The notes below the pieces were generated by a model. The model ran no database searches and was not told the DNA's origin. It saw only the letters and a list, made by a program, of their open reading frames with translations. From an uncultured Candidatus Saccharibacteria bacterium (GTDB lineage: Bacteria > Patescibacteriota > Minisyncoccia > Minisyncoccales > Staskawiczbacteraceae), in NCBI GenBank assembly GCA_964362315.1, contig CAYIDV010000001.1, forward strand, positions 9,263 to 49,970: 40,708 bases of DNA, written 5' to 3'. Numbering within the stretch: the first letter of the stretch is position 1; every line of letters starts with the position of its first letter. A program made the position numbers and the translations under genes. Shown one piece after another: positions 2,926-40,708 of the stretch.

Positions 2926-3066
2926 TCTAAGAAGGGAGATATAGCTGAGGAATTTTATTTAATTGGAGACCGAAAACTATTAGAGAAGGAAATGCGTGAT
3001 ACCGCCAAAAATCTGGACTTTGAAAGAGCGGCTCAGCTCCGCGATTTAATAGCCAAGTTAAAGTAA
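2926..3066 (+). pseudogene. Relic second copy of the uvrB 3' end (UVR domain), in the same frame as uvrB
   Basis: It translates to SKKGDIAEEFYLIGDRKLLEKEMRDTAKNLDFERAAQLRDLIAKLK*. This parallels uvrB residues SKKEDIAEEFETVHDRKLLEREMKQAAKNLDFERATQLRDLIAK. 2926-874 is a multiple of 3, and in-frame stops lie between the two copies. Confidence 0.75.
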
Positions 3067-3095
3067 ACAGCTAATATGGTCCATATTAGCTGTTT
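3067..3095. terminator. Bidirectional hairpin terminator between the uvrB relic and the 3108-4541 gene
   Basis: AAACAGCTAATATGG-T-CCATATTAGCTGTTT is a near-perfect palindrome, followed by ACTTTTCT. Confidence 0.6.
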
Positions 3096-3107
3096 ACTTT
3101 TCTAATG

Positions 3108-4541
3108 CTACGAATGCCATAATTCCTTCCATGCTTCTTTCCAAAATTCTTTTGTGGTAAACATGCGCTTTATATCTCTGCCAATATCTTCAAAATCTCT
3201 GATAATATCTTTAACTCGATTACTATATTTTCTTTGCCCATTTTCTTTGAATCTTCTTGCTGCCTCAGATCTAGATAAACTGGCCCTTTTATAGGCAAAA
3301 TTTCCTTCTTTATCTTCATACCTACGCAAACCCTTGGCAATCAGTTTTATTTCTTCTTCTTTCTTTCCCTCTAATTTTAGTTTAAAAGGTTTACCGTCCT
3401 CCCTTATGTATACATTTCCATCTTTTGGTAGCTCTTCACTTTTTTCTATCTTTTCCCACTCTTGATACTTTGTTTTGCTGATATTATAGTTATTTTTTCT
3501 CTCTTTCTCGCTTCCATCTTCATTATAAACTACAAGAGTAGCTGTCCACATACCCTCTTTATCTTTACTAATGTTCTCAAGAGTTACATACTGTTTCTCG
3601 CGGACCCCACCTTCTTTGATAAAACGGTAAACTCTTTCGCCTGCCAGTTGTTTTTTTAAACGCTCAAATTCCGCTTTATCTGGTTTTTCAGAAAGCTCAT
3701 TTAAACTTTCTGAAAGGTTCCTTCTTTCGGGGATCTTTAATCTTTTTTCTTTTGCTTCCGGCAGAACCATGCCCTCCGCCAGAATCCTGTATTGTTCTGC
3801 TAATTTTTCTTGTTCATCCCCCTTAATTTCTTTCTCTTTAGAGGGCGGGACCATCCCTTCAGCTAAAATTCTGTACTGTTCCCCCATCTCTTTCTGTTTC
3901 TCCGTTTGTTCTGTTTCTTCTTTTACTTTTTCCTCTCGTTCTTTTACTCTTTCAGCTACTTCTTTATCAGATATCTTACCGCCAAGCTCCCTTATCAATT
4001 CTTTTCGCGCCTCTACCTCTTCATATCCGGTTGTTTTTCCTTTTTTACTTTTATTAATATCGGTGAACTTCTTTTGCAGTTCCTTATCATCCATATCAGC
4101 ACTATGGGTTAAAAATCTTAGTCTTTTCCATCGTTCACTCAATATATCCAAAACAGCGTCGTACTCCTTTTTAAGATCCTCCATGGCAATATCAAAACTT
4201 TGGTCCCTTGATATTTTACTGCCAGATTTTTTTGCCTTTTTATAATGAGATTCGGCAATTTGGGCTAATTTTTTCTGTAAAAATTCTTCATCTTCAACCT
4301 CATTTCCTCCTCTATTTATCTTCTCTAAGGAACCCTGGGCATTCTCAATGTCTTCCCTTAAAATATCGTGTGTTTCCTCTATTTCCTTTAGCCAAGAACT
4401 TTTCTCCTCTTTGCCATTTTGTTCTGCCGAAAGTTTATCAATTTCAGGGAAATCAAAATCAAACTTTTCTCTTTCCCCTGTCGGCTGGGTTTGTTTTTCA
4501 GCCGATTGTTTGTTTGAATCAGGTTGCCGTTCTTGTTTCAT
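3108..4541 (-). CDS. Hypothetical Lys/Glu-rich protein with an internal 28-aa repeat
   Basis: This is a 477-aa ORF with no long competing ORF of better quality. It carries the repeat EQYRILAEGMV(P/L)P. I recognise no family. Confidence 0.6.
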   Translation of the reverse strand: MKQERQPDSNKQSAEKQTQPTGEREKFDFDFPEIDKLSAEQNGKEEKSSWLKEIEETHDILREDIENAQGSLEKINRGGNEVEDEEFLQKKLAQIAESHYKKAKKSGSKISRDQSFDIAMEDLKKEYDAVLDILSERWKRLRFLTHSADMDDKELQKKFTDINKSKKGKTTGYEEVEARKELIRELGGKISDKEVAERVKEREEKVKEETEQTEKQKEMGEQYRILAEGMVPPSKEKEIKGDEQEKLAEQYRILAEGMVLPEAKEKRLKIPERRNLSESLNELSEKPDKAEFERLKKQLAGERVYRFIKEGGVREKQYVTLENISKDKEGMWTATLVVYNEDGSEKERKNNYNISKTKYQEWEKIEKSEELPKDGNVYIREDGKPFKLKLEGKKEEEIKLIAKGLRRYEDKEGNFAYKRASLSRSEAARRFKENGQRKYSNRVKDIIRDFEDIGRDIKRMFTTKEFWKEAWKELWHS

Positions 4542-4945: not shown

Positions 4946-4972
4946 AAAAAGACCCTTTAAAGGGTCTTTTTT
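4946..4972. terminator. Bidirectional rho-independent terminator
   Basis: AAAAA-GACCCTTTAAAGGGTC-TTTTTT lies between convergent genes. Confidence 0.75.
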
Positions 4973-5403: not shown

Positions 5404-6339
5404 TTAAATACTGGAAACCAAAACGGCTAAGGCTGTTTCTGGTTCTATTTTACCTGTTTTAATATCTAAGTCAATCTGAAAAATAGCACTGTAGATTTTC
5501 TTTAATTCTTCAAAAGAAAACTGTTGGCAAACGAAGTAATTTTTTTTGACTACAAAGGGATGCAATCCGCTCTTTTTAACAATAGAGGCGTACATAAAAC
5601 CTTTCTCTGCCAATTCTTTTATTAAAAGTAAATTTCTGAACTGATATGTCAGCATGGAGAGCAAATACATAGAATTGTCGCCGTTATCCAAATGTTTTTG
5701 TAAAAATTCTATTGCCTGTTTTTTGTTTTTTGTCGCCAAAGCGTCAATAGTTTTAAAAATATCTGTTTCAATGTTTGGTTTCACTAACAGCTCAATGTCA
5801 TCTTTTTTAATAATTAGTCCCTGTTTAAAATTTGCCAATTTTTTAATTTCATTGGAAGCTCTCCACAAATCATTGCCAATATATGTCAAAAAAAGATTCA
5901 AAGCGTCTAAATTTAACTTTACTTTGTAATTTTCTGTTTCTTTTAAAGCCCACTGTTTTAAGCTTTTAAAATCTAATAAATTGAAATTTTGTGATTTGCA
6001 TTCTTTTATTAAGGTTTTAAATAATTTTAACCTTTGGTCAACTTCCTGGTTTTCATAAACAATGATAACGTCTTTTAAGGATTGTAGTTTTTCAATTTCT
6101 TCTGTAAAATTTTCTTGAAAACTTTTATTCAAAAAAAGGTTTTTTAATATTACCAGTTTCTTTTCAACAAACATTGGAGAAATTTTAAAATTATTGTAAA
6201 AGTCGGAGAAATCTGTAGTGTTGGCATCTATGTAAATTAAATTCAATCCACTTTTATTGGAATTTTTGTAATGGATTATAATCTCCTCTAATTTCTGCTT
6301 TGACCTGTACGAATCAGGCCCATATAAAAATATAATCAT
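5404..6339 (-). CDS. holA: DNA polymerase III subunit delta
   Basis: The 311-aa product has the N-terminus IIFLYGPDSYRSKQKLEEI and a C-terminal helical domain typical of HolA. This is a recognition-level call. Confidence 0.7.
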   Translation of the reverse strand: MIIFLYGPDSYRSKQKLEEIIIHYKNSNKSGLNLIYIDANTTDFSDFYNNFKISPMFVEKKLVILKNLFLNKSFQENFTEEIEKLQSLKDVIIVYENQEVDQRLKLFKTLIKECKSQNFNLLDFKSLKQWALKETENYKVKLNLDALNLFLTYIGNDLWRASNEIKKLANFKQGLIIKKDDIELLVKPNIETDIFKTIDALATKNKKQAIEFLQKHLDNGDNSMYLLSMLTYQFRNLLLIKELAEKGFMYASIVKKSGLHPFVVKKNYFVCQQFSFEELKKIYSAIFQIDLDIKTGKIEPETALAVLVSSI

Positions 6340-6356
6340 AAATTAACTTCTAACCA

Positions 6357-6390
6357 TCTTACAACTTTCACAGCTGTGAAAGTTGTAAGA
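6357..6390. repeat. Perfect 34-nt palindrome TCTTACAACTTTCACAG|CTGTGAAAGTTGTAAGA
   Basis: All 17 pairs were checked by hand. It lies 3 nt downstream of the stop of the 6393-6923 gene. The same sequence is embedded in the palindrome at 6961-7010. Confidence 0.95.
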
Positions 6391-6392
6391 CT

Positions 6393-6923
6393 TTAAATTT
6401 CTTCTATTAAAAGTATCTTTACGTAATTATCCAAACTGTATAATTGAAGTAATTTTTCTGTTTTTTCTGAAACATCATAGGGAGTTATCCAAACGCTTTG
6501 CTGAAACATTTTATAACCTAAATTTATTAGAATACTTCTCATTAAATCCCTCTTTTTCCTGTTTTTAGAGGGCATATCAAAAATCAACATTATCCACTTC
6601 TTATCTTTTCTTTTATTGTTTTTGTTTTCAATAAAACTTGCTTTTAATGCTTTAGATAAGCCGTATTTAGTAATAATAAAACCTTTTTTATTTTCTAAGT
6701 TCTTAGCTTTTATATAGTTCTTTCTCTTTAAATAGTAAATAAAATTATTAAACTCCCTCCTCCCCATTTCTCTTTGGTATTTTCCAATAATTGGGTCTAC
6801 ATCACCCATTAAAATGCTTTTTTGTTTGTATTTGTTGCTTAAAACAAAATCTATGACATTATCTGCCTTTTCTAAGAACTTATATAAATCCCATAAAAAT
6901 TGATCGGTAACTCTCAATTTCAT
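6393..6923 (-). CDS. wHTH + Cas2-like (PaaX-like) small DNA-binding protein, copy 1
   Basis: The product is 176 aa. The C-terminal half, WIMLIFDMPSKNRKKRDLMRSILINLGYKMFQQSVWITP, follows the Cas2/PaaX-middle-domain pattern (beta strand-FD-x-P ... R..L...L...G....Q.SVW). The N-terminal half (FIYYLKRKNYIKAK...ITKYGLSKA) looks like a winged helix. A paralog lies at 35701-36228. Confidence 0.6.
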   Translation of the reverse strand: MKLRVTDQFLWDLYKFLEKADNVIDFVLSNKYKQKSILMGDVDPIIGKYQREMGRREFNNFIYYLKRKNYIKAKNLENKKGFIITKYGLSKALKASFIENKNNKRKDKKWIMLIFDMPSKNRKKRDLMRSILINLGYKMFQQSVWITPYDVSEKTEKLLQLYSLDNYVKILLIEEI

Positions 6924-6960
6924 TATTATCTATTATACCAACAATGAGCGCTCTTATATA

Positions 6961-7010
6961 TCACACCATCTTACAACTTTCACAGCTGTGAAAGTTGTAA
7001 GATGGTGTGA
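6961..7010. repeat. Perfect 50-nt palindrome with core TCACAGCTGTGA
   Basis: TCACACCATCTTACAACTTTCACAG|CTGTGAAAGTTGTAAGATGGTGTGA lies 38 nt upstream of the start of 6393-6923. A TATAAT box sits between the palindrome and the gene on the minus strand. Confidence 0.95.
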
Positions 7011-7121
7011 GAACCTAGAGAATCATGAAGGCAGAATTATATTATAAATAGGTAACAATGAATACTAATTAATTACTAATGGTGGAGATAGTAAGTATTA
7101 CATCACACAATATACAGAGTA

Positions 7122-7997
7122 CTATAATTTTTGGCATTGGGGACAGAAAAAGGCACTTCTGCCGCCGAATTTCAATCTTTTAATTATTGTTTTGCAACGA
7201 AAACATTTTTGCCCTTCTCTTTTATAAGCTTTTCTTTCATCGTCAAAATTGCCTTTTTTGCCTTCAACATTTCTATAATCAGAAAAACTTTCTCCGCCCA
7301 ACTCAATTCCTTTATGTAAAACCCTTTTTATGGATTGATAAAGTAAATTTAATTCTTTTTGGGTTAATTTTGAAGTTTCTTTTTGAGGATGAATTTTTGC
7401 CCACCATAAAGCTTCACTGGCATAAATGTTGCCAACTCCGGAAATTACTTCTTGGTTCATTATCACTTGCTTTATTTTTCCTTTTTTATTTTTCAATCTT
7501 TTCTTGAACTTTTCCAATGTAAAACCTTTTTCCAACGGCTCTGGCCCTAAATTTTTAAATTCTTTTAAATTTAATAAATCCTTTGTCTTCCATAGCTCCA
7601 CTTTGGCAAATTTTCTCAAGTCAGACAAGGCAATCTGTTGCCCGTTATCCAAAAAAAACATTATGTGTATGAATAAATTTATTTTTTCATCTAAGGGACC
7701 TCTTTTTACTGGTTTCCAACTTCCAGCTTCCAACTTCCAGTTTCCCACCAAGAGATGCCCCGTCATTTTTTGGTGAACCAAAAGAGAATAGCCGTCAGAT
7801 AAATCAAAAATAATATTTTTTGCCCGGCGCCAGACTTTTTTTATTTCTTTGCCTTTTAATTCTTTTTTAAAAATTTTAAAATCCTTTGGTTTTTTAATTG
7901 TCTTTACCCAATCTGACCAGACATCAACAAAGGTCCTTTTGAGGACCTTTGTATTTAAACCGTTTACCGTCGTCTCTACCTCGGGAAGTTCGGGCAT
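7122..7997 (-). CDS. mutM: Formamidopyrimidine-DNA glycosylase
   Basis: The 291-aa product has the N-terminus MPELPEVE and a C-terminal zinc finger, CFRCKTIIKRLKFGGRSAFFCPQCQ. Confidence 0.93.
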   Translation of the reverse strand: MPELPEVETTVNGLNTKVLKRTFVDVWSDWVKTIKKPKDFKIFKKELKGKEIKKVWRRAKNIIFDLSDGYSLLVHQKMTGHLLVGNWKLEAGSWKPVKRGPLDEKINLFIHIMFFLDNGQQIALSDLRKFAKVELWKTKDLLNLKEFKNLGPEPLEKGFTLEKFKKRLKNKKGKIKQVIMNQEVISGVGNIYASEALWWAKIHPQKETSKLTQKELNLLYQSIKRVLHKGIELGGESFSDYRNVEGKKGNFDDERKAYKREGQKCFRCKTIIKRLKFGGRSAFFCPQCQKL

Positions 7998-8563: not shown

Positions 8564-9448
8564 CTAAAAAACAATAGTGGATAATCTGTCAACAAGGCTA
8601 TTGAATCCTAATTGATAAAAGACGTTTTTTACTTTCTGCTGGTCAAAATTTCCAAACTTGCATAACTCCAAATCAAAATCTAAGGGAACGTCTTTTTTAG
8701 TTTGGACCAATTGCAAGGACAAAAAAGCGCTTTGTTTATTGTTTTTCAACGCCTCTTTGATTTTCGGCTTTAAAACAGCCGTGTCGGTTGCCAGTTCTGA
8801 GTAAAGGTTTTCAATTCTGCCGAATTTTTGGATTAATTCGGCCGCCGTTTTTTTTCCAATTCCTGGAACACCGGGCACATTGTCTGAAGCGTCTCCGGTC
8901 AGAGCCTTAAAATCGTTCATTTGTGAAGGTTTTACGCCGAATCTTTCCAAAACTTTTTCTTCATCATATAAAACACTGTCTTTTATGCCTTTACCTAAGG
9001 TATATACTTTTATTTTTTCATCAACAAGCTGAAGATTATCCAAATCTCCGCTTAAAATAAAAACTTCTGCCTCGCCTTTAACTTTGTTGGCGATAGTAGC
9101 AATCAAATCATCGGCTTCAAAACCGTCTTTTTCAAAAATAGGCACCTTAAATGATTCTAAAACTTCTTTCATTATTGGTATTTGAGAAACTATTCCTTCT
9201 GGCGTTTGGGGCCTGTGTATTTTATATTCTTTAAACTCTTGGTGACGAAAAGTCGGCTTTTCGGTATCAAAACAAGCAACAATGTAGTTTGCTTTTAAGT
9301 CTTTTATCGCCTTGAATAGAGTTAATAAAAAACCATATACTGCGCCCGTCGGCTGCCCCTTTTTATTTGTCAGCGGCGGCAAAGCATGAAAAGCCCTATA
9401 TAGTAAAGAATGACAGTCTATGATAATAAGTCTCTTATCTGTGGCCAT
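8564..9448 (-). CDS. Stand-alone 5'-3' exonuclease (Pol I N-terminal domain / FEN-like)
   Basis: The 294-aa product begins LIIIDCHSLLYRAFHALPPL. It also carries GFEADD, LSGDLD, and the H3TH motif LTGDASDNVPGVPGIGKKTA. Confidence 0.9.
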   Translation of the reverse strand: MATDKRLIIIDCHSLLYRAFHALPPLTNKKGQPTGAVYGFLLTLFKAIKDLKANYIVACFDTEKPTFRHQEFKEYKIHRPQTPEGIVSQIPIMKEVLESFKVPIFEKDGFEADDLIATIANKVKGEAEVFILSGDLDNLQLVDEKIKVYTLGKGIKDSVLYDEEKVLERFGVKPSQMNDFKALTGDASDNVPGVPGIGKKTAAELIQKFGRIENLYSELATDTAVLKPKIKEALKNNKQSAFLSLQLVQTKKDVPLDFDLELCKFGNFDQQKVKNVFYQLGFNSLVDRLSTIVF

Positions 9449-17761: not shown

Positions 17762-17787
17762 AACTAATTATAGAAAACTAATACCAA

Positions 17788-17813
17788 CAAAAGCCCTTTT
17801 AAAAGGGCTTTTG
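17788..17813 (+). terminator. Rho-independent terminator
   Basis: CAAAAGCCCTTTT|AAAAGGGCTTTTG is a palindrome followed by TTCTG. Confidence 0.6.
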
Positions 17814-17861
17814 TTCTGAATATTGCTTTTTATGATAAACTGAGTAAAATGAATATTCTTA

Positions 17862-24884: not shown

Positions 24885-26423
24885 CTATTCTACAATAATA
24901 TTAGTGCTGGAGGTAGGTATAATGTCAATTCTGTATAAATCGTAGTTCTCGGGTAAAAAGTCTAATTGACCGATATTTTTTATATCGCTTGCTCCCCCTC
25001 TAAATAATTTGCAGGTTCTGCGTTTTTGCCCCAGCTCATCTCCAATTTTATCTTCGCCGTGAAGAACTATATAGTAACTTCCCAGAGGCGATACTTCCCT
25101 TAAACAAGGGGCTTCAGGGTCTGCTAATTGACACTCTTCTAAATCTTCTATATCTTCATGAGTTTTGTTTGTGTATATCCAGCCATAACCCTCATAAGGA
25201 TCCTCAGGAAAAGAAAAATATCTTCGCCAAATAAAGTCATCGGGATGTACGTCGTAAAAACATCCCTGACATATTGAAAGGCCGGCTTGTATTTCATCTT
25301 TGTCTATAAATACCGCTAAATTTGTGCTATAGAGCAAAACTCCGTCTCCAGAAGTTTCCAAAAACGGGTTGGGTTTTATGATATATGCCCATTTAGGGTT
25401 AAAGGGGCCCGTGGCGGGCGACCGGTTATCAGGAAGAGTGCAACAAATGGTTGATGGTGATTTTTTTCCATCATCTTCCTCTTTTCTGGTACAACCTGAC
25501 CGCTCTGTTGTTTCATCCAAATTCATAAATGGCCCTATGCACTCTGAAGTAAAACCAGCAGCTTTAGCCATATAAATTCCAAATTTTTCGTTCTGGGCAG
25601 AGCCGCTGACTATTTGTATAGAACGCACTACTTGGTCAGGGTCTCTTAAATCGTCAAATGAAGGTATAAGCCCGTCTGATTTTTTAACGCAAGTGGTGCG
25701 GTTGGGCTCGCAAGTACTGATGCCAGTGCAGTCATTGGTGTTGTAAAAATAAACACCGGTGTCTTTTTTAATCCATTGTACTGACTTTCCCAAAATTATT
25801 GTTTCAACATTGCATTTTATTTCTTTGGTAAAATTTGTACCTACTGGTCCTCTTCTAAAATTAATTTGGCCAAACTGTCTTAATAAAATAGTTGGGCCAG
25901 GCGATTGGCAATTATAGACGAATGTGGGATTTAATAAATTTAAGGGGCTGGTATCAGCAATACCAGTTCCAGGCAGTGATTTATAGCTTCTACCCTCAAG
26001 ATTAGTCTCAGTTTTGGGTGTGTCTGTAACAATATAAGTTCCGTAAGAAAGAGTTGTTTTGGGGCTAGATATCTCTATCAGCTGCGGGTTTATTGTATTC
26101 AATAGTACTACAGATGTCACTAAAAGAACTATTCCCATAACAGCGTCAAAAATTCTTTTTCTGGCAGCGCTTACTGCCTCCGGTCTGCCAAAGTTTAATA
26201 ATATCTGAAATCCCCCAATGACTATTGATAAAATACCCATGCCTCCAGCCGATAATAATAAGAAGTAAAAAATATATAAAATGAATTTAGGCAAAGCAGT
26301 TGCCCCTGTCGGCTCCAATCCAAACAAGGGAGGGTATTTTAATTCCAAAGCTAAAACAGACGGGGCTAAAACCAATAGCAAGATAGACGTCAAAACAAAT
26401 AGATAATTTTTATATTTTTTCAT
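24885..26423 (-). CDS. T4SS pilin-like N-terminal module fused to a large Cys-rich extracellular domain
   Basis: The product is 512 aa. It has a signal/TM helix, then two hydrophobic helices separated by NFGRPEAVSAARKRI, an arrangement like the VirB2/TrbC-type pilins of Gram-positive and CPR T4SS-like loci. About 390 aa follow, with about 18 Cys. Confidence 0.5.
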   Translation of the reverse strand: MKKYKNYLFVLTSILLLVLAPSVLALELKYPPLFGLEPTGATALPKFILYIFYFLLLSAGGMGILSIVIGGFQILLNFGRPEAVSAARKRIFDAVMGIVLLVTSVVLLNTINPQLIEISSPKTTLSYGTYIVTDTPKTETNLEGRSYKSLPGTGIADTSPLNLLNPTFVYNCQSPGPTILLRQFGQINFRRGPVGTNFTKEIKCNVETIILGKSVQWIKKDTGVYFYNTNDCTGISTCEPNRTTCVKKSDGLIPSFDDLRDPDQVVRSIQIVSGSAQNEKFGIYMAKAAGFTSECIGPFMNLDETTERSGCTRKEEDDGKKSPSTICCTLPDNRSPATGPFNPKWAYIIKPNPFLETSGDGVLLYSTNLAVFIDKDEIQAGLSICQGCFYDVHPDDFIWRRYFSFPEDPYEGYGWIYTNKTHEDIEDLEECQLADPEAPCLREVSPLGSYYIVLHGEDKIGDELGQKRRTCKLFRGGASDIKNIGQLDFLPENYDLYRIDIIPTSSTNIIVE

Positions 26424-26473: not shown

Positions 26474-28270
26474 TTACCCCGTTGCCAATTTCTTTCTGGC
26501 TTCTTTGATTTTTTCCACTTCCTCGGGATTAGTGGTTATAATTTGGTCTTCTGTATAGCTGGCTTTTACGCTGATAAAAACGTGTTTTCTTCCGGCAAAA
26601 AAAAGTCCTTCACCCACTGCCGATTCTAACAACAGCATTTTTTCTTGTTCAGTCAAATCAAATGTTTTCTGCAACAGCTCAATGGCTGCGGGCGACTGTT
26701 TTAGCAAAAGCTGCAGAGAGGAGTTTGTAATAATGGCTTTTCCATAAGACGACTTCATAAAATCTTCTACATCTTGGGTAATAGTGGTTACCCCCAGCCA
26801 GTATTTTCTGGCCCTTTTTACCACACCAAACAAAAATGAGGCGCCGTCTTCTGAATTAATCAACCACCAAGCCTCGTCAATCACCAAAATTCTCCTTTTG
26901 GCTTCCGTCCTGATGATGTTCCAGACATAACGCATTATCATAAACAAAGCCACTGGTTTTAAAGATTCCTGCATGTCTTTTAAACCAAAGACGATAAAGT
27001 TTTTATCAATTTCAATATTGGATTTTTGGTTGAAAAACCCAGCAAATGTCCCCTGGGTGAATTTTTTAAGCCGTCTGGTCATAGATTCTGCTCCTGACAT
27101 GTTTTCTAAAATCTCAGCCAAGTCAGACATAACAGGTATCTTTTCCTGCCAAGTATTTGGGTTAGATTGCGGGGTAATGTCTCTGAGGGAGTAAGTTTCG
27201 CTGATGGCCTGGTCTAAAATACTGTCTTCTTCAATGGTTAGCCCTCCTAACATTATTCTTAAAAATCCCACTAAATTTATTACGTTTGACCTTAAAATGT
27301 CTTCTGGGTTGTCATCGGGCCCTGGAGTAGGCAAGTCAAATGGATTGACGTGGCTTTTTGAGGTTAAAGATATCCTAAAAAAATTACCACCGACGCCGTC
27401 GGCCAAAAATTCGTATTCGTTTTCCGGGTCAATAACAATAATATCAATTCCCGTCATCAAATACCTTAAAATTTCCAGTTTGACCGCGTACGATTTGCCC
27501 GCTCCCGATTTGGCAAACACCACCATGTTAGAATTTTCCAGAGAGAACCGGTCAAATAGCACCAGAGAACTGTTATGGCCGTTAATGCCATATAAAATTC
27601 CTTCATTAGAGCTTAAATCAAAAGAAATAAAAGGAAAAGTGGTTGAAAGTGGCTCTGTGTTAATGGGGATATTGGTTGAAAGCAGGTCTAAGCCGTAAGG
27701 GCTGGTTGAAATAAAACCTTCTTTTTGCCTGAAGAGAGCTGGTTTTATGTATATTAAACGGGATTCAAAAATAGACCTTAAAGTTGTCTCTGTTTCTTTT
27801 ATTTTTTCTTCTGTATTCTCATATACGGTAAGATACAACCCAAATCTGAACATTTTTTCTTGGGATGTTACTATTTTATCCCTCAAATTCTCAATATCTT
27901 GATAGCCGGCTTCCAAAACAGGGTCGCGGATAAGCCCCTTTTCCTGCCTTTCTAATAATTCCGAAGATACTTGGGTAATTTTTTTTCTCAATTTTTTTAA
28001 AATCAACTCGTTGCTTACCGGGTAGATAAAAAAAGATATGTCCATTGGCGAATTTAAGTTAATGACCGGAGAAAGCCATCCTGTATCCAAATACCTGGGA
28101 TAGGAAAAAATAAAAAATGATTTGGCAATTCTTTCCTCAAGCTTTATATAATTTTGAGTTATCCCCAAGTAGGGCGGGGCAATAACATCCTTTATGTTAA
28201 AACTTGCCTCATCAACTATTTTATCCTCTGTTTCAACCTCTTTTTTCTTTTTGAAAAAGGGAAAATCCAT
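26474..28270 (-). CDS. virB4: VirB4/TrbE-family type IV secretion ATPase
   Basis: The 598-aa product has the N-terminal motif FIFSYPRYLDTGWLSPV, the Walker A FAKSGAGKSY and the Walker B RILVIDEAWW. Confidence 0.85.
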   Translation of the reverse strand: MDFPFFKKKKEVETEDKIVDEASFNIKDVIAPPYLGITQNYIKLEERIAKSFFIFSYPRYLDTGWLSPVINLNSPMDISFFIYPVSNELILKKLRKKITQVSSELLERQEKGLIRDPVLEAGYQDIENLRDKIVTSQEKMFRFGLYLTVYENTEEKIKETETTLRSIFESRLIYIKPALFRQKEGFISTSPYGLDLLSTNIPINTEPLSTTFPFISFDLSSNEGILYGINGHNSSLVLFDRFSLENSNMVVFAKSGAGKSYAVKLEILRYLMTGIDIIVIDPENEYEFLADGVGGNFFRISLTSKSHVNPFDLPTPGPDDNPEDILRSNVINLVGFLRIMLGGLTIEEDSILDQAISETYSLRDITPQSNPNTWQEKIPVMSDLAEILENMSGAESMTRRLKKFTQGTFAGFFNQKSNIEIDKNFIVFGLKDMQESLKPVALFMIMRYVWNIIRTEAKRRILVIDEAWWLINSEDGASFLFGVVKRARKYWLGVTTITQDVEDFMKSSYGKAIITNSSLQLLLKQSPAAIELLQKTFDLTEQEKMLLLESAVGEGLFFAGRKHVFISVKASYTEDQIITTNPEEVEKIKEARKKLATG

Positions 28271-28278
28271 GACTATAG

Positions 28279-28732
28279 ATTAAAAATTAAAAATTAAATA
28301 TTAAAAATACAAAGTAAAAATTAAAAATCACCTCTTGCCTTTTAAAGTAATAATACTTGAAGCGAAGATATTTGATATTTCATTTAACTCTTTTAAAAAC
28401 CATTCTACATCTTCTGGCTTCACTCTTTTAGTATCTCGCAATAAAGCCAACCACAACTTGCTTTCATTAGCTGATTTTAATGAAATAGAGAAAAAGTTTG
28501 TAAAATCTTTTTTACTACTGGCAGCTTGTCCCTCTATGTAGTTACTAAGAATACTTGTTCCGCTTCTTAAAAGTTGGTCGCTAATCCTTTTAGATACATT
28601 ATCGTTGTGTAGCCTATCTATAAATTGAATGAGCTTTATAACGAAATTATACAATCTTCTCTTAAAATCACTCTTATCTTTTTTCATTTTAATCTGTATT
28701 TTTGATTTTTGATATTTTATTTTTTTAAATTT
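28279..28732. mobile_element. Cassette 1: four-helix-bundle gene plus inverted A/T heptamer arrays
   Basis: The left flank carries TAAAAAT-type heptamers (28281-28329). The right flank carries their complement, (A/G)ATTTTT-type units (28694-28732). The inner inverted repeat 28300-28318 versus 28688-28706 matches 16 of 19. Confidence 0.4.
28328..28687 (-). CDS. Four-helix-bundle protein (23S rRNA intervening-sequence protein / Avd-like family)
   Basis: The 119-aa product carries the motifs QLLRSGTSILSNYIEGQAASSKKDF and ESKLWLALL. Confidence 0.85.
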   Translation of the reverse strand: MKKDKSDFKRRLYNFVIKLIQFIDRLHNDNVSKRISDQLLRSGTSILSNYIEGQAASSKKDFTNFFSISLKSANESKLWLALLRDTKRVKPEDVEWFLKELNEISNIFASSIITLKGKR

Positions 28733-29401: not shown

Positions 29402-29852
29402 AATTTTAAATTCTAAATTTTAAATCAAATTTTAATTATTAAATTTTAAAACTCTATTTTATTTTGTATTTAAAGCTATTTTTGAAAATATCAAAGTCAA
29501 TTCTTGAGCTTCTTTCCATAATTTTCTACACTCGGGAGCAAAACTTTCAATTGTTTTTGCTAAAATTCTTAACCAATACTTAGTTTCTCTACACTCTTTT
29601 TTACATATAAATATTTTATTCTTGAAATCTTTCTTAGAACTTGCCCCATTTGCTTCCATATAATTAGCTCCTATGCTTGTTCCTGATTTTACTAGTTGAC
29701 CGATAATCGGTTTTGTTATCGTATCTTGTGGTAATTTTTTACAAAAGCTAATAATATTTTCTGAAAACTTAGCAGTTCTTTCTTCCAGGTCGTATTCCAT
29801 GTTTTTTAAAATTTTGGTTTCAATTAAAATTTAAAATTTAGAATTTAAAATT
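29402..29852. mobile_element. Cassette 2: four-helix-bundle gene bounded by perfect 24-nt inverted repeats
   Basis: AATTTTAAATTCTAAATTTTAAAT (29402-29425) is the exact reverse complement of 29829-29852, checked base by base. The cassette fills the intergenic gap to within 1-6 nt of the neighbouring stop and start codons. Confidence 0.6.
29459..29800 (-). CDS. Four-helix-bundle protein (23S rRNA IVS protein / Avd-like family)
   Basis: The 113-aa product carries the motifs QLVKSGTSIGANYMEANGASSKKDF and ETKYWLRIL. Confidence 0.85.
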   Translation of the reverse strand: MEYDLEERTAKFSENIISFCKKLPQDTITKPIIGQLVKSGTSIGANYMEANGASSKKDFKNKIFICKKECRETKYWLRILAKTIESFAPECRKLWKEAQELTLIFSKIALNTK

Positions 29853-30141: not shown

Positions 30142-30641
30142 TTGGGTGTTAGGTGTTAGATGTTAGGTTCTAGTCTTTCAAAGACTTTCCTAAATTAGTT
30201 AACATCTTTCCACAAACATCGTATTCTTTTAAAAAATAATTTAACTTTTCTTCATTTATACATCGTTTTTGAAATGATATTTTTAAATGATGAATTGTTT
30301 CCCTGATTTCTCCCTGTGCCCTGCTGATTCCTTCCAAATAGATATTTGTATGTTTATTATTAAATCCTTCCGCTAAATTTGCCGGTGCCGAATTTGAAGA
30401 TCTTCTTAGTTGCGAACCTATTTCAAATAATTCAAACCTTGGAAGAGACAAAGTTAAATTATGTATTTCAATGGCTAAATCAAATAGTTTTTTATAAACA
30501 TCTAAATCATCTACCGAATTAAATTTCATATTACCTAATATCTATTCTATGATTATACTACATCATAAGAAATATTAAAAACGTACTTGTGGATTAGATA
30601 AATTTATTCTAATATCCAATACCCAAAACCCAACACCCAAA
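30142..30641. mobile_element. Cassette 3: four-helix-bundle gene bounded by imperfect G/T-rich heptamer inverted repeats
   Basis: TTTGGGTGTTAGGTGTTAGATGTTAGG (30141-30167) compared with the reverse complement of 30615-30641 (TTTGGGTGTTGGGTTTTGGGTATTGGA) matches 20 of 27, and the first 10 nt are identical. Confidence 0.5.
30170..30529 (-). CDS. Four-helix-bundle protein (23S rRNA IVS protein / Avd-like family), divergent member
   Basis: The 119-aa product carries SQLRRSSNSAPANLAEGF and a C-terminal helix pair. Confidence 0.75.
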   Translation of the reverse strand: MKFNSVDDLDVYKKLFDLAIEIHNLTLSLPRFELFEIGSQLRRSSNSAPANLAEGFNNKHTNIYLEGISRAQGEIRETIHHLKISFQKRCINEEKLNYFLKEYDVCGKMLTNLGKSLKD

Positions 30642-35495: not shown

Positions 35496-35605
35496 ATTTT
35501 GAATATTTATTGATTATATCATAAATTAAACAGTCAACGAGCTGTTAATATCCACAACCAAGATTCATTAACTATTTTGATACTAAGGACTATTAAGTTT
35601 CAAAT

Positions 35606-35651
35606 AAAACACTCTGCAATTCTCACAGGTGTGAGAATTGCAGAGTGTTTT
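35606..35651. repeat. 46-nt palindrome with core TCACAGGTGTGA
   Basis: AAAACACTCTGCAATTCTCACAG/GTGTGAGAATTGCAGAGTGTTTT forms 22 bp with a GG centre. It lies 50 nt downstream of the stop of 35701-36228. Confidence 0.95.
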
Positions 35652-35700
35652 ATAATTAGGGAATGCTTTAAGATTTTATAGATATTGTATTTGATTAGAG

Positions 35701-36228
35701 TCATATTTCTTCAATTAAAAATATTTTTACGTATTGGTCTAAAGAATGTAATTGCAATAATTGTTCTGTGTTTTCAGAAACATCATAAGGGGTTATCCAT
35801 ACACTTTGCTGAAACATTTTATATCCTAAATTTTTCAAAATACTTCTTAATAGATCCCTAGATTTTCTATATTTGGCAGGCATATCAAAAATTAACATTA
35901 TCCATTTACTGTCTTTCCTTTTCTTTTTCGTTTCAACTCTAAAACTTGATTTGAGAGCCTTGTCTATCCCCTTTTTAGTAATAATAATCCCTCTTTTACC
36001 CTCTAAGTTTTTAGCTTTTATATAATTTTTTCTCTTCAAATAAATTATTAATTTGTAGAATTTTTCTCTGCCGATTTGCTTAAGATATTTATATGAAATG
36101 GAATCTTTAGGGCCAAGCAAAACAGTTTTTATTGTGGGGTATGGGTAAAATTCTGGAATACTATCAACAGTTCTTTCCAAAAAATTATATAGATCCCAAA
36201 GAAATTTATCTGTAATTCTTGTTTTCAT
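35701..36228 (-). CDS. wHTH + Cas2-like (PaaX-like) small DNA-binding protein, copy 2
   Basis: The product is 175 aa. Its C-terminal 75 aa are nearly identical to copy 1 (WIMLIFDMPAKYRKSRDLLRSILKNLGYKMFQQSVWITPYDVSENTEQLLQL...). The N-terminal half is more diverged. Confidence 0.6.
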   Translation of the reverse strand: MKTRITDKFLWDLYNFLERTVDSIPEFYPYPTIKTVLLGPKDSISYKYLKQIGREKFYKLIIYLKRKNYIKAKNLEGKRGIIITKKGIDKALKSSFRVETKKKRKDSKWIMLIFDMPAKYRKSRDLLRSILKNLGYKMFQQSVWITPYDVSENTEQLLQLHSLDQYVKIFLIEEI

Positions 36229-36270
36229 TTTCTACTTAATTTTACCATTCGGCAAAATATCCCACAATAC

Positions 36271-36316
36271 AAAATACACCACAATACTCACAGCTGTGAA
36301 TATTGTGGTGTATTTT
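36271..36316. repeat. 46-nt palindrome with core TCACAGCTGTGA (one mismatch)
   Basis: AAAATACACCACAATACTCACAG|CTGTGAATATTGTGGTGTATTTT lies 43 nt upstream of the start of 35701-36228. A partial extra copy of the left arm lies at 36250-36270. Confidence 0.9.
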
Positions 36317-36379
36317 GCCGACTATTAGGCTATAAACTGACTGTCGACTTGGCTAAAGGCTATTTAACAATTTTAAATT

Positions 36380-37286: not shown

Positions 37287-37295
37287 TGTGGATAA
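37287..37295 (-). promoter_or_regulatory. Perfect DnaA-box 9-mer (TGTGGATAA on the plus strand)
   Basis: This is an exact consensus match that overlaps the GTG start of the M23 peptidase gene. Its function is unknown. Confidence 0.3.
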
Positions 37296-38466
37296 AAACT
37301 TGACCGAGGCAGTGTTAAGTGCTAACCTTACCGTATCAAAATCAAAGCAAAACATTTTGTTTACATTTTTTAAAAGAAAATTTAAGCAGATAAAACTACG
37401 AGGGTTTTTCAAAAATCCTTTTCTTTATTTACCTTATAAAAAACCACGCCGTTCTATTGACGGAGGTTTTTATTTTGGGTTATCTTGCTTTGTTTTATTG
37501 GGATTATTGTTTTTGTCATCTGCCAACTTGAATAAATTAAGTTATTTTGAAAACGGAGACACATTATTTAAATCATTTTTTCAGAATAATTCAAACTCCC
37601 AAGACAACAGTTTATTTTTTGACCAAAACAAAGCCTTGGCGCTGGAAACTCCTGACTTGAAAATAGGAGATAATTTTATTTACGGAATTTCCACTCCCAG
37701 AGTCTTAACCACCCAAACCCTGGGAGATATTTTTGGGGAATTTTCCAAAAAACAGGAAATTACAGACTACACTGTGCAGCCGGGCGACACTATAAAGTTA
37801 TTAGCCAAAGAATTTAAAGTTCCCCCAGAAACTATTGCCGATGCAAACAAAGTTTCAAAAGACTCCCCCCTGCAAGTAGGGCAGAATCTTGTTATTTTGT
37901 CAGTTCCCGGAGTTATACACGTTGTCAAATCGGGAGACACCATAAACCAAATAGGCAAAACCTATAAAGCCAAAACAGATGACATAATTGCCTTTAATAA
38001 TCTGACAAACGAATTAGATATTTTTATAGGAGATATTCTAATTGTTCCAGATGGCGTAATGCCTAAAAAGCCAGCACCTTCTATTGCCAAAGCTCCATTG
38101 CCAGACACCTTCTTTATTTATCCTACAGAAGGCATAATTACGCAGGGTCTCCATTACTACAATGCAGTTGATATTGCCAATAAATTAGGAACGCCTGTTT
38201 ATGCGGCAGCTTCCGGTATAGTGCAGAGAGTCAGATATGACTACAGGTACGGAAATTATCTAACAATTTTACATAACAATGGAGTAGTGACTTATTATGG
38301 CCATTTGCAAAATATTTTTGTCAAATCCGGAGACAATGTTACTGTTGGAGATAGAATTGCATTTATGGGAAACACAGGGAGTAAATCAACTGGCTACCAC
38401 CTGCACTTTGGGGTTTCAGGAGACAGGAATCCTTTAGCTGGGAAATCATCCATTAAGTATAAGTAG
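37288..38466 (+). CDS. LysM-domain M23-family peptidoglycan endopeptidase
   Basis: It uses a GTG start and has a TM anchor. There are two LysM repeats (YTVQPGDTIKLLAKEF and HVVKSGDTINQIGKTY). The M23 motifs are HYYNAVD and GNTGSKSTGYHLHF. Confidence 0.88.
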   Translation: MDKNLTEAVLSANLTVSKSKQNILFTFFKRKFKQIKLRGFFKNPFLYLPYKKPRRSIDGGFYFGLSCFVLLGLLFLSSANLNKLSYFENGDTLFKSFFQNNSNSQDNSLFFDQNKALALETPDLKIGDNFIYGISTPRVLTTQTLGDIFGEFSKKQEITDYTVQPGDTIKLLAKEFKVPPETIADANKVSKDSPLQVGQNLVILSVPGVIHVVKSGDTINQIGKTYKAKTDDIIAFNNLTNELDIFIGDILIVPDGVMPKKPAPSIAKAPLPDTFFIYPTEGIITQGLHYYNAVDIANKLGTPVYAAASGIVQRVRYDYRYGNYLTILHNNGVVTYYGHLQNIFVKSGDNVTVGDRIAFMGNTGSKSTGYHLHFGVSGDRNPLAGKSSIKYK

Positions 38467-38469
38467 CTA

Positions 38470-38515
38470 TTTTAACGGCTCTCATCCGCCAGCTGGCGGA
38501 TGAGAGCCGTTAAAA
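38470..38515. repeat. Perfect 46-nt palindrome centred on CAGCTG
   Basis: TTTTAACGGCTCTCATCCGCCAG|CTGGCGGATGAGAGCCGTTAAAA starts 4 nt after the peptidase stop. Confidence 0.95.
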
Positions 38516-38525
38516 ACAGTCAATT

Positions 38526-38560
38526 AAACGGCTAAAATGGCAATTTTAGCCGTTTTTTCT
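38526..38560 (+). terminator. Rho-independent terminator of the M23 peptidase gene
   Basis: AAACGGCTAAAAT-GGCA-ATTTTAGCCGTTT is followed by TTTCTGGTTTTTT. Confidence 0.7.
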
Positions 38561-38576
38561 GGTTTTTTATACCCAA

Positions 38577-38624
38577 AAACCCCCTGCAAAAAGTTGACGA
38601 CCGTCAATTTTTTGCAGGGGGTTT
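38577..38624. repeat. 48-nt hairpin palindrome (23-bp stem)
   Basis: AAACCCCCTGCAAAAAGTTGACG-AC-CGTCAATTTTTTGCAGGGGGTTT has one G-T pair. Its CCTGCAAAA...TTTTGCAGG motif is shared with the hairpin at 40395-40424. Confidence 0.9.
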
Positions 38625-38688
38625 AATATTGACGGGGTCGGACCCCGCCTAACTATTTTTAATCACAAGAACAGGTAAACATTTCAAT

Positions 38689-38728
38689 CACAAAAATTCA
38701 ATGGCTCACTCGAGTGAGCCATTGAATT
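38689..38728 (-). terminator. Rho-independent terminator of comM
   Basis: AATTCAATGGCTCACTCGAGTGAGCCATTGAATT is a perfect 34-nt palindrome, followed on the minus strand by TTTTTG. Confidence 0.7.
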
Positions 38729-38740
38729 ATTTAGTTTAAC

Positions 38741-40327
38741 CTACTCTTTAAGTCGGTACATTAAAGCTTCCGCCACGTGTTCTTTCTGGATATTTTCACT
38801 ATCTGCCAAATCGGCAATGGTTCTGGCTACTTTTAAAACCCTATGGTAGCCTCTAGCCGAAAGCTTTCCCGAATCCACATATCTTTTCAAAAGATTCTGA
38901 GATTCAAAATCATGCTGGCAGTATTTTTTAATTTCGGGGATGTTCATTTCTGAGTTGACCAAAATTTTATCATTTTTAAACCTTTCTTTTTGGATTTCCC
39001 TTGCCTTGGCTATTTTATTTCTTAAAACTTGGCCTTGATTTTGGCTAACTTCAGCCGCTAATTTTTCATATTTTACTGCTGGCACCTCAATAAAAATGTC
39101 TATTCTGTCCATTAGGGGTCCTGAAAGTTTTCTTTTATACATTGCCACTTGGGAACTGGTGCAAGAACAGGGATTTTCTGGACTGTTTAAGTAGCCGCAG
39201 GGACAGGGGTTGGAAGCGGCAATCAAGGTAAAACGGCTGGGAAAAGTAAGAGTGTTTTTGGCTCTGGAAACAGTGATTTTTCCGTCTTCTATGGGCTGGC
39301 GCAAAGATTCAAGGGCGTCTCGGTGGAATTCCGGAAACTCGTCTAAAAACAAAATTCCCCGATGGGCTAAAGTCATTTCTCCGGGCCTGGGCGGATTTCC
39401 CCCGCCTATTAAAGCTGCTTCAGATAAAGTGTGGTGAGGTGAGCGAAAGGGTCTGGCGTTGACCAAGATTTGATTTTCTCTTAACAATCCGGCAACGCTG
39501 TAGATTTTGGTAACTTCCAGGGATTCGGCAAAAGTTAGGGGAGGCAAAATTGAAGGCAAAGATTTTGCTAATAGACTTTTGCCTCCTCCCGGCGGCCCAA
39601 AGAAAAATAAGTTATGGGCTCCAGCAGCTGAAATCTCTAAGGCCCTTTTAGCATATTCTTGTCCCTTTATCCAGCTAATATCAACAGAGTTATCTGAATT
39701 TTCGTTGGTATTTTCAAACAAGTATTCTGAGGAAAACGGCTCAATTGGTTTTCTGTTTTCTAAATAAGCCAAGGCCTCAGTTAAAGACTCAACTCCGATT
39801 ACCTTTACTTCGTTAGAAATTTTTTCGTTAAAATTCTTACCGTTAGATTTCTCATTAAAATTTCTAACGGGGCTTACCAAACTAGCCTCCCTGGCATTTT
39901 GTTTTGGTAAAATTATTTCTTTTATTCCCAGATTTTTAGCCAACAAGGCAAAAGACAAAGCTCCTTTGACCGGCCTTAAGGTTCCATCTAAGGACAGCTC
40001 CCCCAAAAATATTTTGTCTTCTGGATTAAAATAGGTTTGTTTTGAACTCAATAAAAAAGCCAAGGCAATTGGTAAATCGTATAACGAACCTTCTTTTTTT
40101 AAGTCAGCTGGCGCCAGATTTACCAAAATTCTAAAAGGTCTTTGGTAAGGCGACAGCAATTTGGAGGTTTTGATTGCAGATTCTATTCTTTCTTTAGATT
40201 CCTCCACCGCTTTATCGGGAAGCCCCACAATAGAAAAAGAGCGCAGGCCATGAGAGACGTCAATCTCCACTTCTACGGGCCTGGCGTCTAAACCGACAAT
40301 GGCGGCTGAATATACTTTTGAGGGCAT
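38741..40327 (-). CDS. comM: YifB/ComM-family Mg-chelatase-like AAA+ ATPase
   Basis: The 528-aa product has an N-terminal Lon-protease-like domain (VEVEIDVSHGL..FSIVGLPD), the Walker A GPPGGGKS and the Walker B ILFLDEFPEF. It carries an extra NFNEKSNGKNFNEKISNE segment. Confidence 0.93.
   Translation of the reverse strand: MPSKVYSAAIVGLDARPVEVEIDVSHGLRSFSIVGLPDKAVEESKERIESAIKTSKLLSPYQRPFRILVNLAPADLKKEGSLYDLPIALAFLLSSKQTYFNPEDKIFLGELSLDGTLRPVKGALSFALLAKNLGIKEIILPKQNAREASLVSPVRNFNEKSNGKNFNEKISNEVKVIGVESLTEALAYLENRKPIEPFSSEYLFENTNENSDNSVDISWIKGQEYAKRALEISAAGAHNLFFFGPPGGGKSLLAKSLPSILPPLTFAESLEVTKIYSVAGLLRENQILVNARPFRSPHHTLSEAALIGGGNPPRPGEMTLAHRGILFLDEFPEFHRDALESLRQPIEDGKITVSRAKNTLTFPSRFTLIAASNPCPCGYLNSPENPCSCTSSQVAMYKRKLSGPLMDRIDIFIEVPAVKYEKLAAEVSQNQGQVLRNKIAKAREIQKERFKNDKILVNSEMNIPEIKKYCQHDFESQNLLKRYVDSGKLSARGYHRVLKVARTIADLADSENIQKEHVAEALMYRLKE
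39811..39872. repeat. Inverted-repeat mini-element inside the comM coding sequence
   Basis: CGTTAGAAATTTT (39811-39823) pairs with AAAATTTCTAACG (39857-39869). The right end AAATTTCTAACGGGG is identical to 23151-23165, and the left end is identical to 23036-23048. Confidence 0.8.
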
Positions 40328-40430: not shown

Positions 40431-40708
40431 TCACAATATAGCTGCCATTTTTACACGTCTTTGCGACTGGTAGCAACCGTAGCAAAGCCCAAGCGCCTGA
40501 ATGGTTTTTGTTTCTTTGCACTTGGCGCATTTGCCAATTTTGCTCCGCCGGTAGCAGGCAGGACAGACAGCTTTGCCGTCTTCAGTGCGCATTGCCACCG
40601 GCTTGACCTCTCCACATTCAGAGCACTTCTCATGGGTGGAAGGGTCTTTGCGGTAGCAGGCATGACAGACAGCTTTGCCGTCTTCAGTGCGCATTGCCAC
40701 CGGCTTGA
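40431..40708 (-). CDS. Partial (N-terminus outside the window) multi-zinc-ribbon repeat protein, GC-rich
   Basis: The reading frame is open to the window edge. It has at least 3 C-x2-C...GK-x-VC-x2-CY modules (KCSECGEVKPVAMRTEDGKAVCPACYRR). The final module, KCAKCKETKTIQALGLCYGCY, is a variant that lacks the GK-x-VC spacing. Confidence 0.6.
   Translation of the reverse strand, partial: KPVAMRTEDGKAVCHACYRKDPSTHEKCSECGEVKPVAMRTEDGKAVCPACYRRSKIGKCAKCKETKTIQALGLCYGCYQSQRRVKMAAIL
40549..40708. repeat. Tandem 102-bp (34-aa) coding repeat
   Basis: The 58 nt at 40549-40606 and at 40651-40708 differ at one position. The repeat continues to the window edge. Confidence 0.85.

Follow-up and report, generated by a model that had tools for sequence, protein, structure and literature searches.

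The closest described counterparts of the element analyzed here, a palindrome-gene-palindrome unit that occurs twice in a 40,708-nt chromosome segment of an ultra-small groundwater bacterium of the Patescibacteria (positions 9,263 to 49,970 of contig CAYIDV010000001.1; hereafter the window), are transcriptional regulators of the PaaX type. Escherichia coli PaaX hinders RNA polymerase at its own promoter, which it thereby represses, recognizes an operator of the form TGATTC-N27-GAATCA, with a dyad about 39 bp wide, and, according to a review, binds the inducer phenylacetyl-CoA through its C-terminal helical domain, PF08223 (PMC9493321). The protein encoded by the unit resembles PaaX in the succession of a predicted winged helix and a Cas2-like middle domain (PF20803), the best fold match being the PaaX structure 8a39. 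The geometry of its putative, widely spaced inverted-repeat operator is comparable, the palindromes of the family having symmetric blocks to either side of the dyad, at positions 15-17, and a span of about 40 bp. It differs from PaaX in length (176 aa as against about 300 aa), in the absence of PF08223, in an N-terminus without a Pfam match to PaaX, in having no paa genes nearby and in being present as several paralogues per genome. Moreover, the predicted operators are found here on both sides of the gene, and their center is a conserved core with which the Cas2-like domain covaries.

The second relevant comparison is with Cas2, the dimer of which, in E. coli, sits on the middle of the protospacer duplex, where Asn10, Arg14 and Arg16, in the loop after beta1, together with Arg77/78, touch the backbone (PMC6395717). 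The family described here has the same beta-alpha-beta-beta-alpha-beta fold and the acidic residue that ends beta1, and the residues that covary with DNA, 119-129, lie in the equivalent loop. When E9 of E. coli Cas2 is aligned with D116, an alignment made from the motif and not from a computed structural superposition, residues 119-126 would fall within the duplex-contacting loop. Cas2, however, contacts the backbone only, whereas base-specific reading is implied here; furthermore, Cas2 is a stand-alone protein of about 90-100 aa that adjoins cas1 and a CRISPR array, whereas the present unit has neither of them, nor a defense context, and its protein carries an additional N-terminal domain of 100 aa in a winged-helix fusion.

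With respect to gene layout, two further systems invite comparison. In phage lambda, the gene for the CI repressor lies between the operator regions OL and OR, which are bound by its own product, with autoregulation and formation of a loop. The likeness resides in a repressor gene, a putative one in the present case, placed between two operator regions of its own and in a possible loop; the folds, however, are unrelated, and the lambda operators are tripartite and 2.4 kb apart, in contrast to the single 40-50-bp dyads found here at the start and stop codons, which are separated by about 600 bp and belong to a cellular chromosome that has several paralogous copies of the unit. With the repetitive extragenic palindromes and their associated tyrosine transposases (REP/RAYT, or REPtron), the unit shares a single gene between cognate palindromes, a stable chromosomal position and vertical inheritance, but it encodes no HUH/Y1 transposase fold, and its palindromes, two (rarely three) per gene, are not dispersed. 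A literature search for the family in Patescibacteria, or the candidate phyla radiation (CPR), retrieved no description, subscription-only papers being outside its scope. The family is of a known kind, that of PaaX-type regulators and operator-bracketed repressors, and represents a new variant of it. The explanation that we favor, and consider probable, is that the unit is an autoregulated, PaaX-derived dimeric repressor with two operators enclosing its own gene, the specificity of which has diversified among paralogues.

Anatomy of the unit and its protein

The gene of the first module (M1) occupies positions 6393-6923 of the window on the minus strand and encodes a protein of 176 aa. Downstream of it lies a putative operator copy at 6353-6390, which consists of a perfect 34-nt palindrome (6357-6390) and 4 nt more that are common with the upstream copy; only 2 nt separate it from the stop codon (6393-6395), and on its other side the holA ATG (6339) follows after 13 nt. 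The putative upstream operator copy is a perfect 50-nt palindrome at 6961-7010, 37 nt from the ATG (6921-6923), with a dyad-ATG distance of 62 nt. The two copies share 38 identical nucleotides (6353-6390 and 6965-7002). The initial annotation of this DNA, made from the sequence alone, had reported the same long palindrome on both sides of the gene, with the correct positions and the correct, perfect symmetry for each copy; only the gaps of 3 and 38 nt that it gave are each too large by one. Its TATAAT box between the upstream palindrome and the gene is present as well, as part of an apparent extended -10 element, TGGTATAAT, at 6932-6940 (minus strand), 8 nt 5' of the ATG, a position that predicts a leaderless or near-leaderless M1 mRNA. 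The outer edge of the upstream palindrome (6951-6963), read on the gene strand, is TGTGATATATA, a second good match to the extended -10 consensus TRTGnTATAAT about 28 nt 5' of the ATG; M1 may possess two promoters, one of them touching the predicted operator. A consensus promoter scan was uninformative (5 sites vs 5.4 expected), and the extended -10 without a -35 escaped it; an Rfam search of 6200-7200 gave only sub-threshold, hairpin-driven matches to miRNA precursors.

The second module (M2), for which the initial annotation had claimed an identical layout, indeed repeats this organization. Its gene (35701-36228, minus strand) encodes 175 aa that are 66% identical to M1 and is preceded, 10 nt 5' of the ATG, by a probable extended -10-like element, TGGTAAAAT (36239-36247, minus strand). 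The putative downstream operator copy at 35604-35653 has arms of 24 nt around a 2-nt center, GG, and the putative upstream copy at 36270-36317 has arms of 24 nt with one mismatch, the same TCACAG·CTGTGA core as M1 (the dot marks the dyad) and C at bp 15. The M2 palindromes differ from each other at several arm positions, each being still almost fully self-complementary, and they sit between AAAA...TTTT flanks. These sequences are confined to the two modules: the M1 34-mer has only two matches in the 40.7 kb at up to 3 mismatches (0 in 100 shuffles), and the 12-nt core TCACAGCTGTGA, at up to 1 mismatch, occurs four times in the window, always beside the M1 or the M2 gene (shuffle mean 0.01).

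The C-terminal half of the protein matches the Pfam domain PaaX_M (PF20803, 'PaaX central Cas2-like domain') at aa 104-171 of M1 with E 1.3e-19 and 70.5 bits, the cutoff being 24, and in M2 with E 9.7e-19. The TIGR01573 cas2 model is passed narrowly (30.6 and 26.1 bits for the two modules, cutoff 24.5), and PADLOC returned Cas2 models only, on the C-terminal domain (Cas2_II, E 3e-9), whereas the full-length PaaX model TIGR02277 failed widely (24.1 bits vs a cutoff of 264.55). Pfam gave no match to PaaX_C (PF08223), the protein stopping right after the Cas2-like domain, and none at E<=1 to the PaaX N-terminal domain PF07848; the region concerned is predicted to form a winged helix, with fold matches to PaaX, MarR and F-93 at weak E-values. 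A search of PHROGs yielded nothing meaningful. An AlphaFold2 (AF2) model of the M1 protein, built from 70 homologues (predicted local distance difference test, pLDDT, 63.6), begins with three helices, after which come a winged helix (helices at 44-53 and 55-67, wing formed by the beta-hairpin 71-84) with its recognition helix at about aa 55-67, a linker helix and a beta-alpha-beta-beta-alpha-beta Cas2-fold domain at aa 111-170. Among PDB structures, Foldseek placed E. coli PaaX (8a39, probability 0.99) first, followed by the PaaX-like 3l09, VapD, several Cas2 structures (template modeling score, TM, about 0.5 over the C-terminal 70 aa) and MarR/F-93 winged helices. On the strength of these profiles and of the predicted fold, we regard the protein as a probable truncated PaaX-type regulator in which a predicted winged helix is joined to a Cas2-fold domain, in line with the earlier suggestion of a winged-helix-like N-terminal half and a C-terminal half of the Cas2/PaaX type.

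A word-indexed search recovered 429 clusters at 90% identity, nearly all from Patescibacteria; when the representatives were those of 50% identity, the clusters that matched numbered 57 at E<=1e-30 and 1443 at E<=1e-10. The gene is under purifying selection: in close pairs, its nucleotide sequence is no less conserved than the DNA on either side.

The bracketing palindromes are a trait of this family. The comparison drew on 43 loci from species-representative genomes and 80 from metagenomes, about 125 Patescibacteria loci with 107 distinct proteins, and a palindrome in the flank was counted when at least 15 of its 22 positions were paired. By this count, 88 of 105 distinct relatives have a palindrome upstream and 88 of 106 downstream (about 84%), against 14 of 176 random 200-nt control windows of other Patescibacteria DNA (8%); most of the apparent misses are imperfect copies recognizable by eye. 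The density of long palindromes of this quality in the 200 nt beside family genes exceeds that in a background of about 580 kb of Patescibacteria DNA about 20-fold. Compared over 40 nt, the copies within a locus have a mean identity of 79%, as opposed to 48% between loci (99th percentile 78%). The distance from the stop codon to the dyad has a sharp mode at 19 nt and that from the dyad to the ATG a mode at 27-33 nt (28 of 77 loci), whereas the next gene starts at widely varying distances beyond the downstream dyad, 9-371 nt; therefore, both copies belong to the family gene and not to its neighbors. This variation, along with a distal arm that offers no better -10 than the proximal one, rules out the downstream palindrome as a promoter of the next gene.

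Third copies of the palindrome are rare (loci L003, L035 and L043), exactly two per gene being the norm. In L043 (356-1041), the order is operator, repressor gene, operator, a gene for a 206-aa HExxH protein and operator, and in L003 a third copy follows rodA/ftsW at about 4698; both loci are short repeat-gene-repeat-gene-repeat strings in which a neighboring gene is bracketed as well. In L035, the third copy (about 3252-3290) lies in-frame in murF and is translated as CNRFLPIGRNLL in a variable MurF loop; MurF ends in a second occurrence of this peptide, at its C-terminus, since the end of the open reading frame (ORF) is overlapped by the upstream operator. A palindrome of similar build lies in-frame in mfd in L080 (about 430-470), in a stretch examined that is without a family gene. 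These in-frame palindromes recall the Rickettsia palindromic elements.

Covariation between the protein and its palindromes

Evidence that connects the protein with the palindromes comes from mutual information between 176 protein columns and 24 half-site DNA positions over 91 distinct proteins, after average product correction (APC). The top pair links aa 60, in the predicted recognition helix, to bp 15 (z 15.4): Lys60 accompanies C in 36 of 41 cases, Asn60 T in 16 of 17, Gln60 G or A in 18 of 21 and Asp60 G in 4 of 4. Read on the partner strand, these pairings match the usual preferences, namely Lys for G, Asn for A, Gln for a purine and Asp for C. The pairs next in rank are aa 126 with bp 5, aa 119 with bp 3, aa 129 with bp 4 and aa 121/124 with bp 2-3, and the residues involved are all in the loop or helix start after beta1 of the Cas2-fold domain. 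At aa 119, Glu goes with C at bp 3 in 30 of 37 cases and Gln with A in 35 of 36; over base pairs 2-3, Glu and Gln accompany C-G and A-A, respectively.

Two controls address shared ancestry. Where two proteins are at least 62% identical, a shared residue at aa 60 is matched by a shared base at bp 15 in 81% and a differing residue by a differing base in 84%; the mismatched control pairs 60 x bp 5, 119 x bp 15 and 30 x bp 15 display no link. On a tree from which the three columns had been left out, parsimony counted 13 same-branch changes vs 4.2 expected for aa 60/bp 15, 10 vs 3.0 for aa 119/bp 3 and 20 vs 10 for aa 126/bp 5, with six control pairs at expectation. The pairing rules are obeyed in the window, where M1 combines Asn60 with T15 and M2 combines Lys60 with C15. 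The putative specificity residues that the covariation singles out are N60, S119 and D126 in M1 and K60, A119 and D126 in M2; the two modules have the ACAG·CTGT core in common, together with S/A119 and with D126 opposite C5.

The constraint on the palindromes themselves is bipartite. Counted from the dyad, positions 1-4 and 15-17 seldom differ between the arms (3-14 of 175 palindromes), whereas mismatches are common at positions 5-10 (31-46 of 175) and from position 19 outward (44-94), and the central pair is complementary in 189 of 205 palindromes. The half-site consensus is (G/A)-T-A-C-Y-A-Y-A-A at positions 18-10 and A-C-R-G at 4-1, and the core is of few types: ACGG·CCGT, AAAG·CTTT, ACGA·TCGT, ACAG·CTGT and AAAC·GTTT. 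A looped hairpin would tolerate or need an unpaired center; given that the center is among the most constrained parts, the pattern is that of a bipartite protein site. The covariation thus points to binding of the protein to its palindromes, and the suggestion of a dimeric DNA binder with a cognate dyad on each side of its gene is supported by the palindrome pair in about 84% of relatives, by the bipartite symmetry and by residue-base covariation that includes a phylogeny-aware count.

Alternative readings: mobile cassettes, hairpins and Cas2

The main rival to an autoregulated repressor is an active mobile cassette: the unit would still be mobile or selfish, the palindromes would be its ends or recombination sites, and the protein, with a Cas2-type nuclease center (D116) and specific binding, would promote excision, insertion or copying into operon junctions. 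We consider this unlikely, although it explains several observations. The unit as a whole is an indel: dprA and topA are directly adjacent in many Patescibacteria and in other phyla, the empty Patescibacteria spacers being 12-25 nt long without a palindrome, and in a Staskawiczbacterium genome with 81% TopA identity to one that holds the unit, the dprA/topA spacer is 12 nt and likewise has none. This junction was used for the comparison because the search of genome contigs for an empty fpg/holA site, made via holA, gave no relatives; an identical Fpg on at least three Hainich groundwater contigs, of the same strain, is followed by the module or by the contig end. Furthermore, genomes hold several copies (at least 4 in MHOR01, 3 in JBBTQB01 and 2 in the window), D116 is invariant, extra palindrome copies lie nearby and twice inside coding regions (murF in L035 and, in similar build, mfd in L080), and the protein tree does not follow genomic context but mixes junctions, M1 and M2 being mutually closest (68%) as against 55-57% to same-junction orthologues, and L003 and L008, of one genome, being 78% identical. 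From this mixing of junctions we deduce occasional copying or conversion of cassettes between them.

The behavior of the units over genomes nevertheless argues against present mobility. The same eight junctions recur across genomes, among them dprA/topA, ligA/rodA-ftsW, degT/femX, fpg/holA (module 1), secY/adk, SDR/comEC-like and a position near rsmA (module 2), and the gene is always co-oriented with its neighbors. Copies at one junction are about as similar to each other as the genes beside them are, module pairs more than 85% identical in DNA always share flanks, and identity reaches no more than about 79-81% in the most recent pairs from different contexts, so that inheritance is mainly vertical, without signs of a recent transposition. 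Filled and empty dprA/topA junctions show no target-site duplication when compared, and no transposase, integrase or cas1 gene is present in or beside the unit. With conserved synteny and no near-identical copies in different contexts, the hairpin-ended mobile unit, one of three scenarios in the initial annotation alongside an autoregulated selfish module and a looping or boundary element, finds no support. Two related ideas were also rejected: a pre-existing palindrome that served as insertion target and was then duplicated, given empty sites without a palindrome, and a dispersed, REP-like repeat, given palindrome arms that are confined to the gene flanks and usually number exactly two per gene.

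It is far less probable that the palindromes are only RNA or DNA hairpins, that is, bidirectional terminators or mRNA stabilizers common in the genome that flank the gene by chance and are not recognized by the protein. In favor of this view, other long zero-loop palindromes with A-run and T-run flanks exist in the window (17786-17815 and four in 38470-38731), the M2 palindromes are set within AAAA...TTTT, and the downstream copies are biased toward wobble pairs on the sense strand. Specifically, mismatches on that strand comprise 89 G-T vs 41 A-C in the downstream copies (p 3e-5), as opposed to 68 G-T vs 72 A-C, no bias, in the upstream copies, which lie some hundreds of bases away on that strand. 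The bias suggests that the downstream copy may also fold in the mRNA and have an added function at the RNA level, that of a 3' stem-loop. As the sole explanation, however, a pure hairpin is contradicted by the amino acid-base covariation, for which it cannot account; moreover, conservation and symmetry are highest at the center of the supposed loop, copies are alike within a locus and unlike between loci, and the M1 copies have no T-run on the gene strand. The absence of a T-run on the gene strand after 6357-6390 and the symmetry through the center do not fit an intrinsic terminator, a G+C-rich stem with a 3-8-nt loop and a subsequent T-run, and agree with the earlier statement that the downstream copy is not a plain terminator. 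The four consecutive palindromes at 38470-38731, with arms of about 15-23 nt, mostly zero-loop and with A- and T-run flanks, lie between convergent genes (37288-38466, plus strand, and 38741-40327, minus strand); they resemble stacked bidirectional terminators and lack the outer-arm motif of the M1 and M2 palindromes. Palindromes akin to this set are found at 3060-3100, 4946-4971 and 17786-17815.

The notion of an orphan CRISPR Cas2 gene within a degenerate or minimal CRISPR-like array, prompted by a C-terminal domain above the NCBI cas2 equivalog cutoff and the PADLOC Cas2 models (E 3e-9), by NCBI records that call relatives 'CRISPR-associated endonuclease Cas2' and by two 38-nt direct repeats around a 'spacer', is hardly credible and is contradicted by the absence from the window of cas1, other cas genes and an array, by the housekeeping genes that are the neighbors in 125 loci, by a 100-aa winged-helix N-terminus that Cas2 does not have, by the far better fit of PaaX_M (E 1e-19 vs 3e-7) and by the fact that the 'spacer' is the gene itself, at fixed distances to both repeats. 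The earlier claim that the window has no CRISPR array and no other cas gene stands: no CRISPR-like array was detected in the window, and a Pfam scan of 30 further window ORFs found no cas gene, cas1 included. Several family members bear the NCBI name quoted above because the C-terminal domain just passes the TIGR01573 cutoff, which amounts to a systematic mis-annotation in Patescibacteria genomes. Patescibacteria are known for their lack of CRISPR components, and the mis-named 'Cas2' entries, which number in the hundreds and belong to no CRISPR system, inflate the counts of such components in this group.

The window as a whole is a segment of the chromosome around dnaA/dnaN that also includes uvrB, holA, fpg, the ruvABC genes, the gene for PBP1, rnpA-yidC, rsmA and comM. 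A second multi-copy family of small genes is present in it, three paralogous genes for '23S rRNA-intervening sequence protein' (PF05635) at 28328-28687, 29459-29800 and 30170-30529, all on the minus strand (E 2e-20, 1e-15 and 2e-25), which lie within 2.2 kb and adjoin genes resembling those of type IV secretion systems (T4SS), namely a pilin-like gene (24885-26423) and one for a TraG/VirB4-like ATPase (26474-28270). Two further repeats are atypical for this A+T-rich genome: a G+C-rich 58-nt direct repeat at the window's end (40549-40606 and 40651-40708, 98% identical, 102 nt apart) and a G+C-rich palindrome, GTGGACGTCGGGCGTCCAC, found twice near the window start (10-41 and 246-277).

Proposed mechanism and implications

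With respect to the way in which the repressor would work, we infer the mode of binding from covariation and homology, and regulation from the anatomy of the loci. The Cas2-fold domains would pair on the dyad of the palindrome, where the beta1-alpha1 loops (about 117-129) would read bp 1-6 on each side, and the winged helices would reach outward, so that residue 60 of the recognition helix reads bp 15-16. A single dimer per palindrome, with its winged helices about 15 bp out on each side, would therefore cover about 40 bp, a geometry known from the operator of E. coli PaaX. The upstream site would overlap or abut the extended -10 of the gene, which would serve a leaderless mRNA, and binding would shut off the gene's own transcription. 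The downstream site, at the stop codon and bound by the same protein, could act as a roadblock to read-through into the next housekeeping gene (holA in the case of M1) or as a looping partner and, once transcribed, would form the 3' hairpin of the mRNA; this role of the downstream copy is suggested by its anatomy. Paralogues of one genome would have diverged in both protein and operator, and therefore each would recognize its own pair of sites. The cassette would have entered conserved operon junctions as a unit and would later have been inherited mostly vertically, with occasional copying between junctions.

The relation of the upstream site to the promoter is clearest in the loci with a dyad-ATG distance of 27-33 nt (for example, L011, L016, L038 and L042), in which the gene-proximal arm resembles TGTAGTATAAT or TGTTATAAT, TATAAT occupies arm positions 16-21 and the ATG follows 3-9 nt on. 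With the -10 box in the palindrome arm, binding would occlude the promoter of a leaderless mRNA in these loci. Overall, the upstream site holds a -10 box in about one third of the loci, and an autoregulated module is the best fitting of the three scenarios mentioned above, although a looping or boundary function may also apply; in upstream copies, the better -10 is on the gene side in 13 loci vs 5, and the downstream copies have no such bias toward the next gene.

Several points weigh against the autoregulated repressor as described. Because the dyads of M1 and M2 are 62-65 nt from the ATG, and the best -10 is left uncovered, simple occlusion does not apply to these two modules, in which regulation may instead proceed through a loop to the downstream copy or from a position upstream. 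That the protein would repress rather than activate is suggested by the position of the site only. A ligand-binding domain is lacking, and there is no further target site in the 40 kb. The linkage of gene and site makes part of the covariation a matter of co-inheritance, which is controlled for but not eliminated. Selection on bases poorly explains a perfect symmetry over 40-50 nt and the 38/38 identity of the M1 copies, so that a copying process, that is, conversion from arm to arm or from copy to copy, has to be added. The confidence of the AF2 model is moderate only, and a profile search of PDB sequences gave no match at E<=1. Finally, the Asp at the Cas2 catalytic position (D116, at the end of beta1) is invariant, and a role in DNA reading or dimerization alone does not need it.

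More tentatively, and with less confidence than in the repressor itself, we envisage from these sequence comparisons that the family might consist of mutually orthogonal repressor-operator pairs that obey a code of one residue to one base; that the cassette might spread as a unit into operon junctions of reduced genomes as a transcriptional valve before essential genes (holA, topA, adk and rodA); and that a Cas2-fold dimer might read DNA at the dyad. To our knowledge, direct sequence reading at a DNA dyad by a Cas2-fold dimer has not been described for this fold. Sequence reading is implied here for the very loop by which Cas2, in Cas1-Cas2, holds the protospacer duplex, which links the PaaX lineage to the adaptation machinery; if true, dyad reading by a Cas2-fold dimer may bear on the origin of protospacer holding by Cas2. 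The covariation also yields base-by-base recognition rules and could supply compact orthogonal repressor/operator pairs. Patescibacteria have very few recognizable transcription factors; a multi-copy, lineage-specific repressor family in the operons of replication, repair and cell-wall genes would be a sizeable share of their regulatory repertoire.

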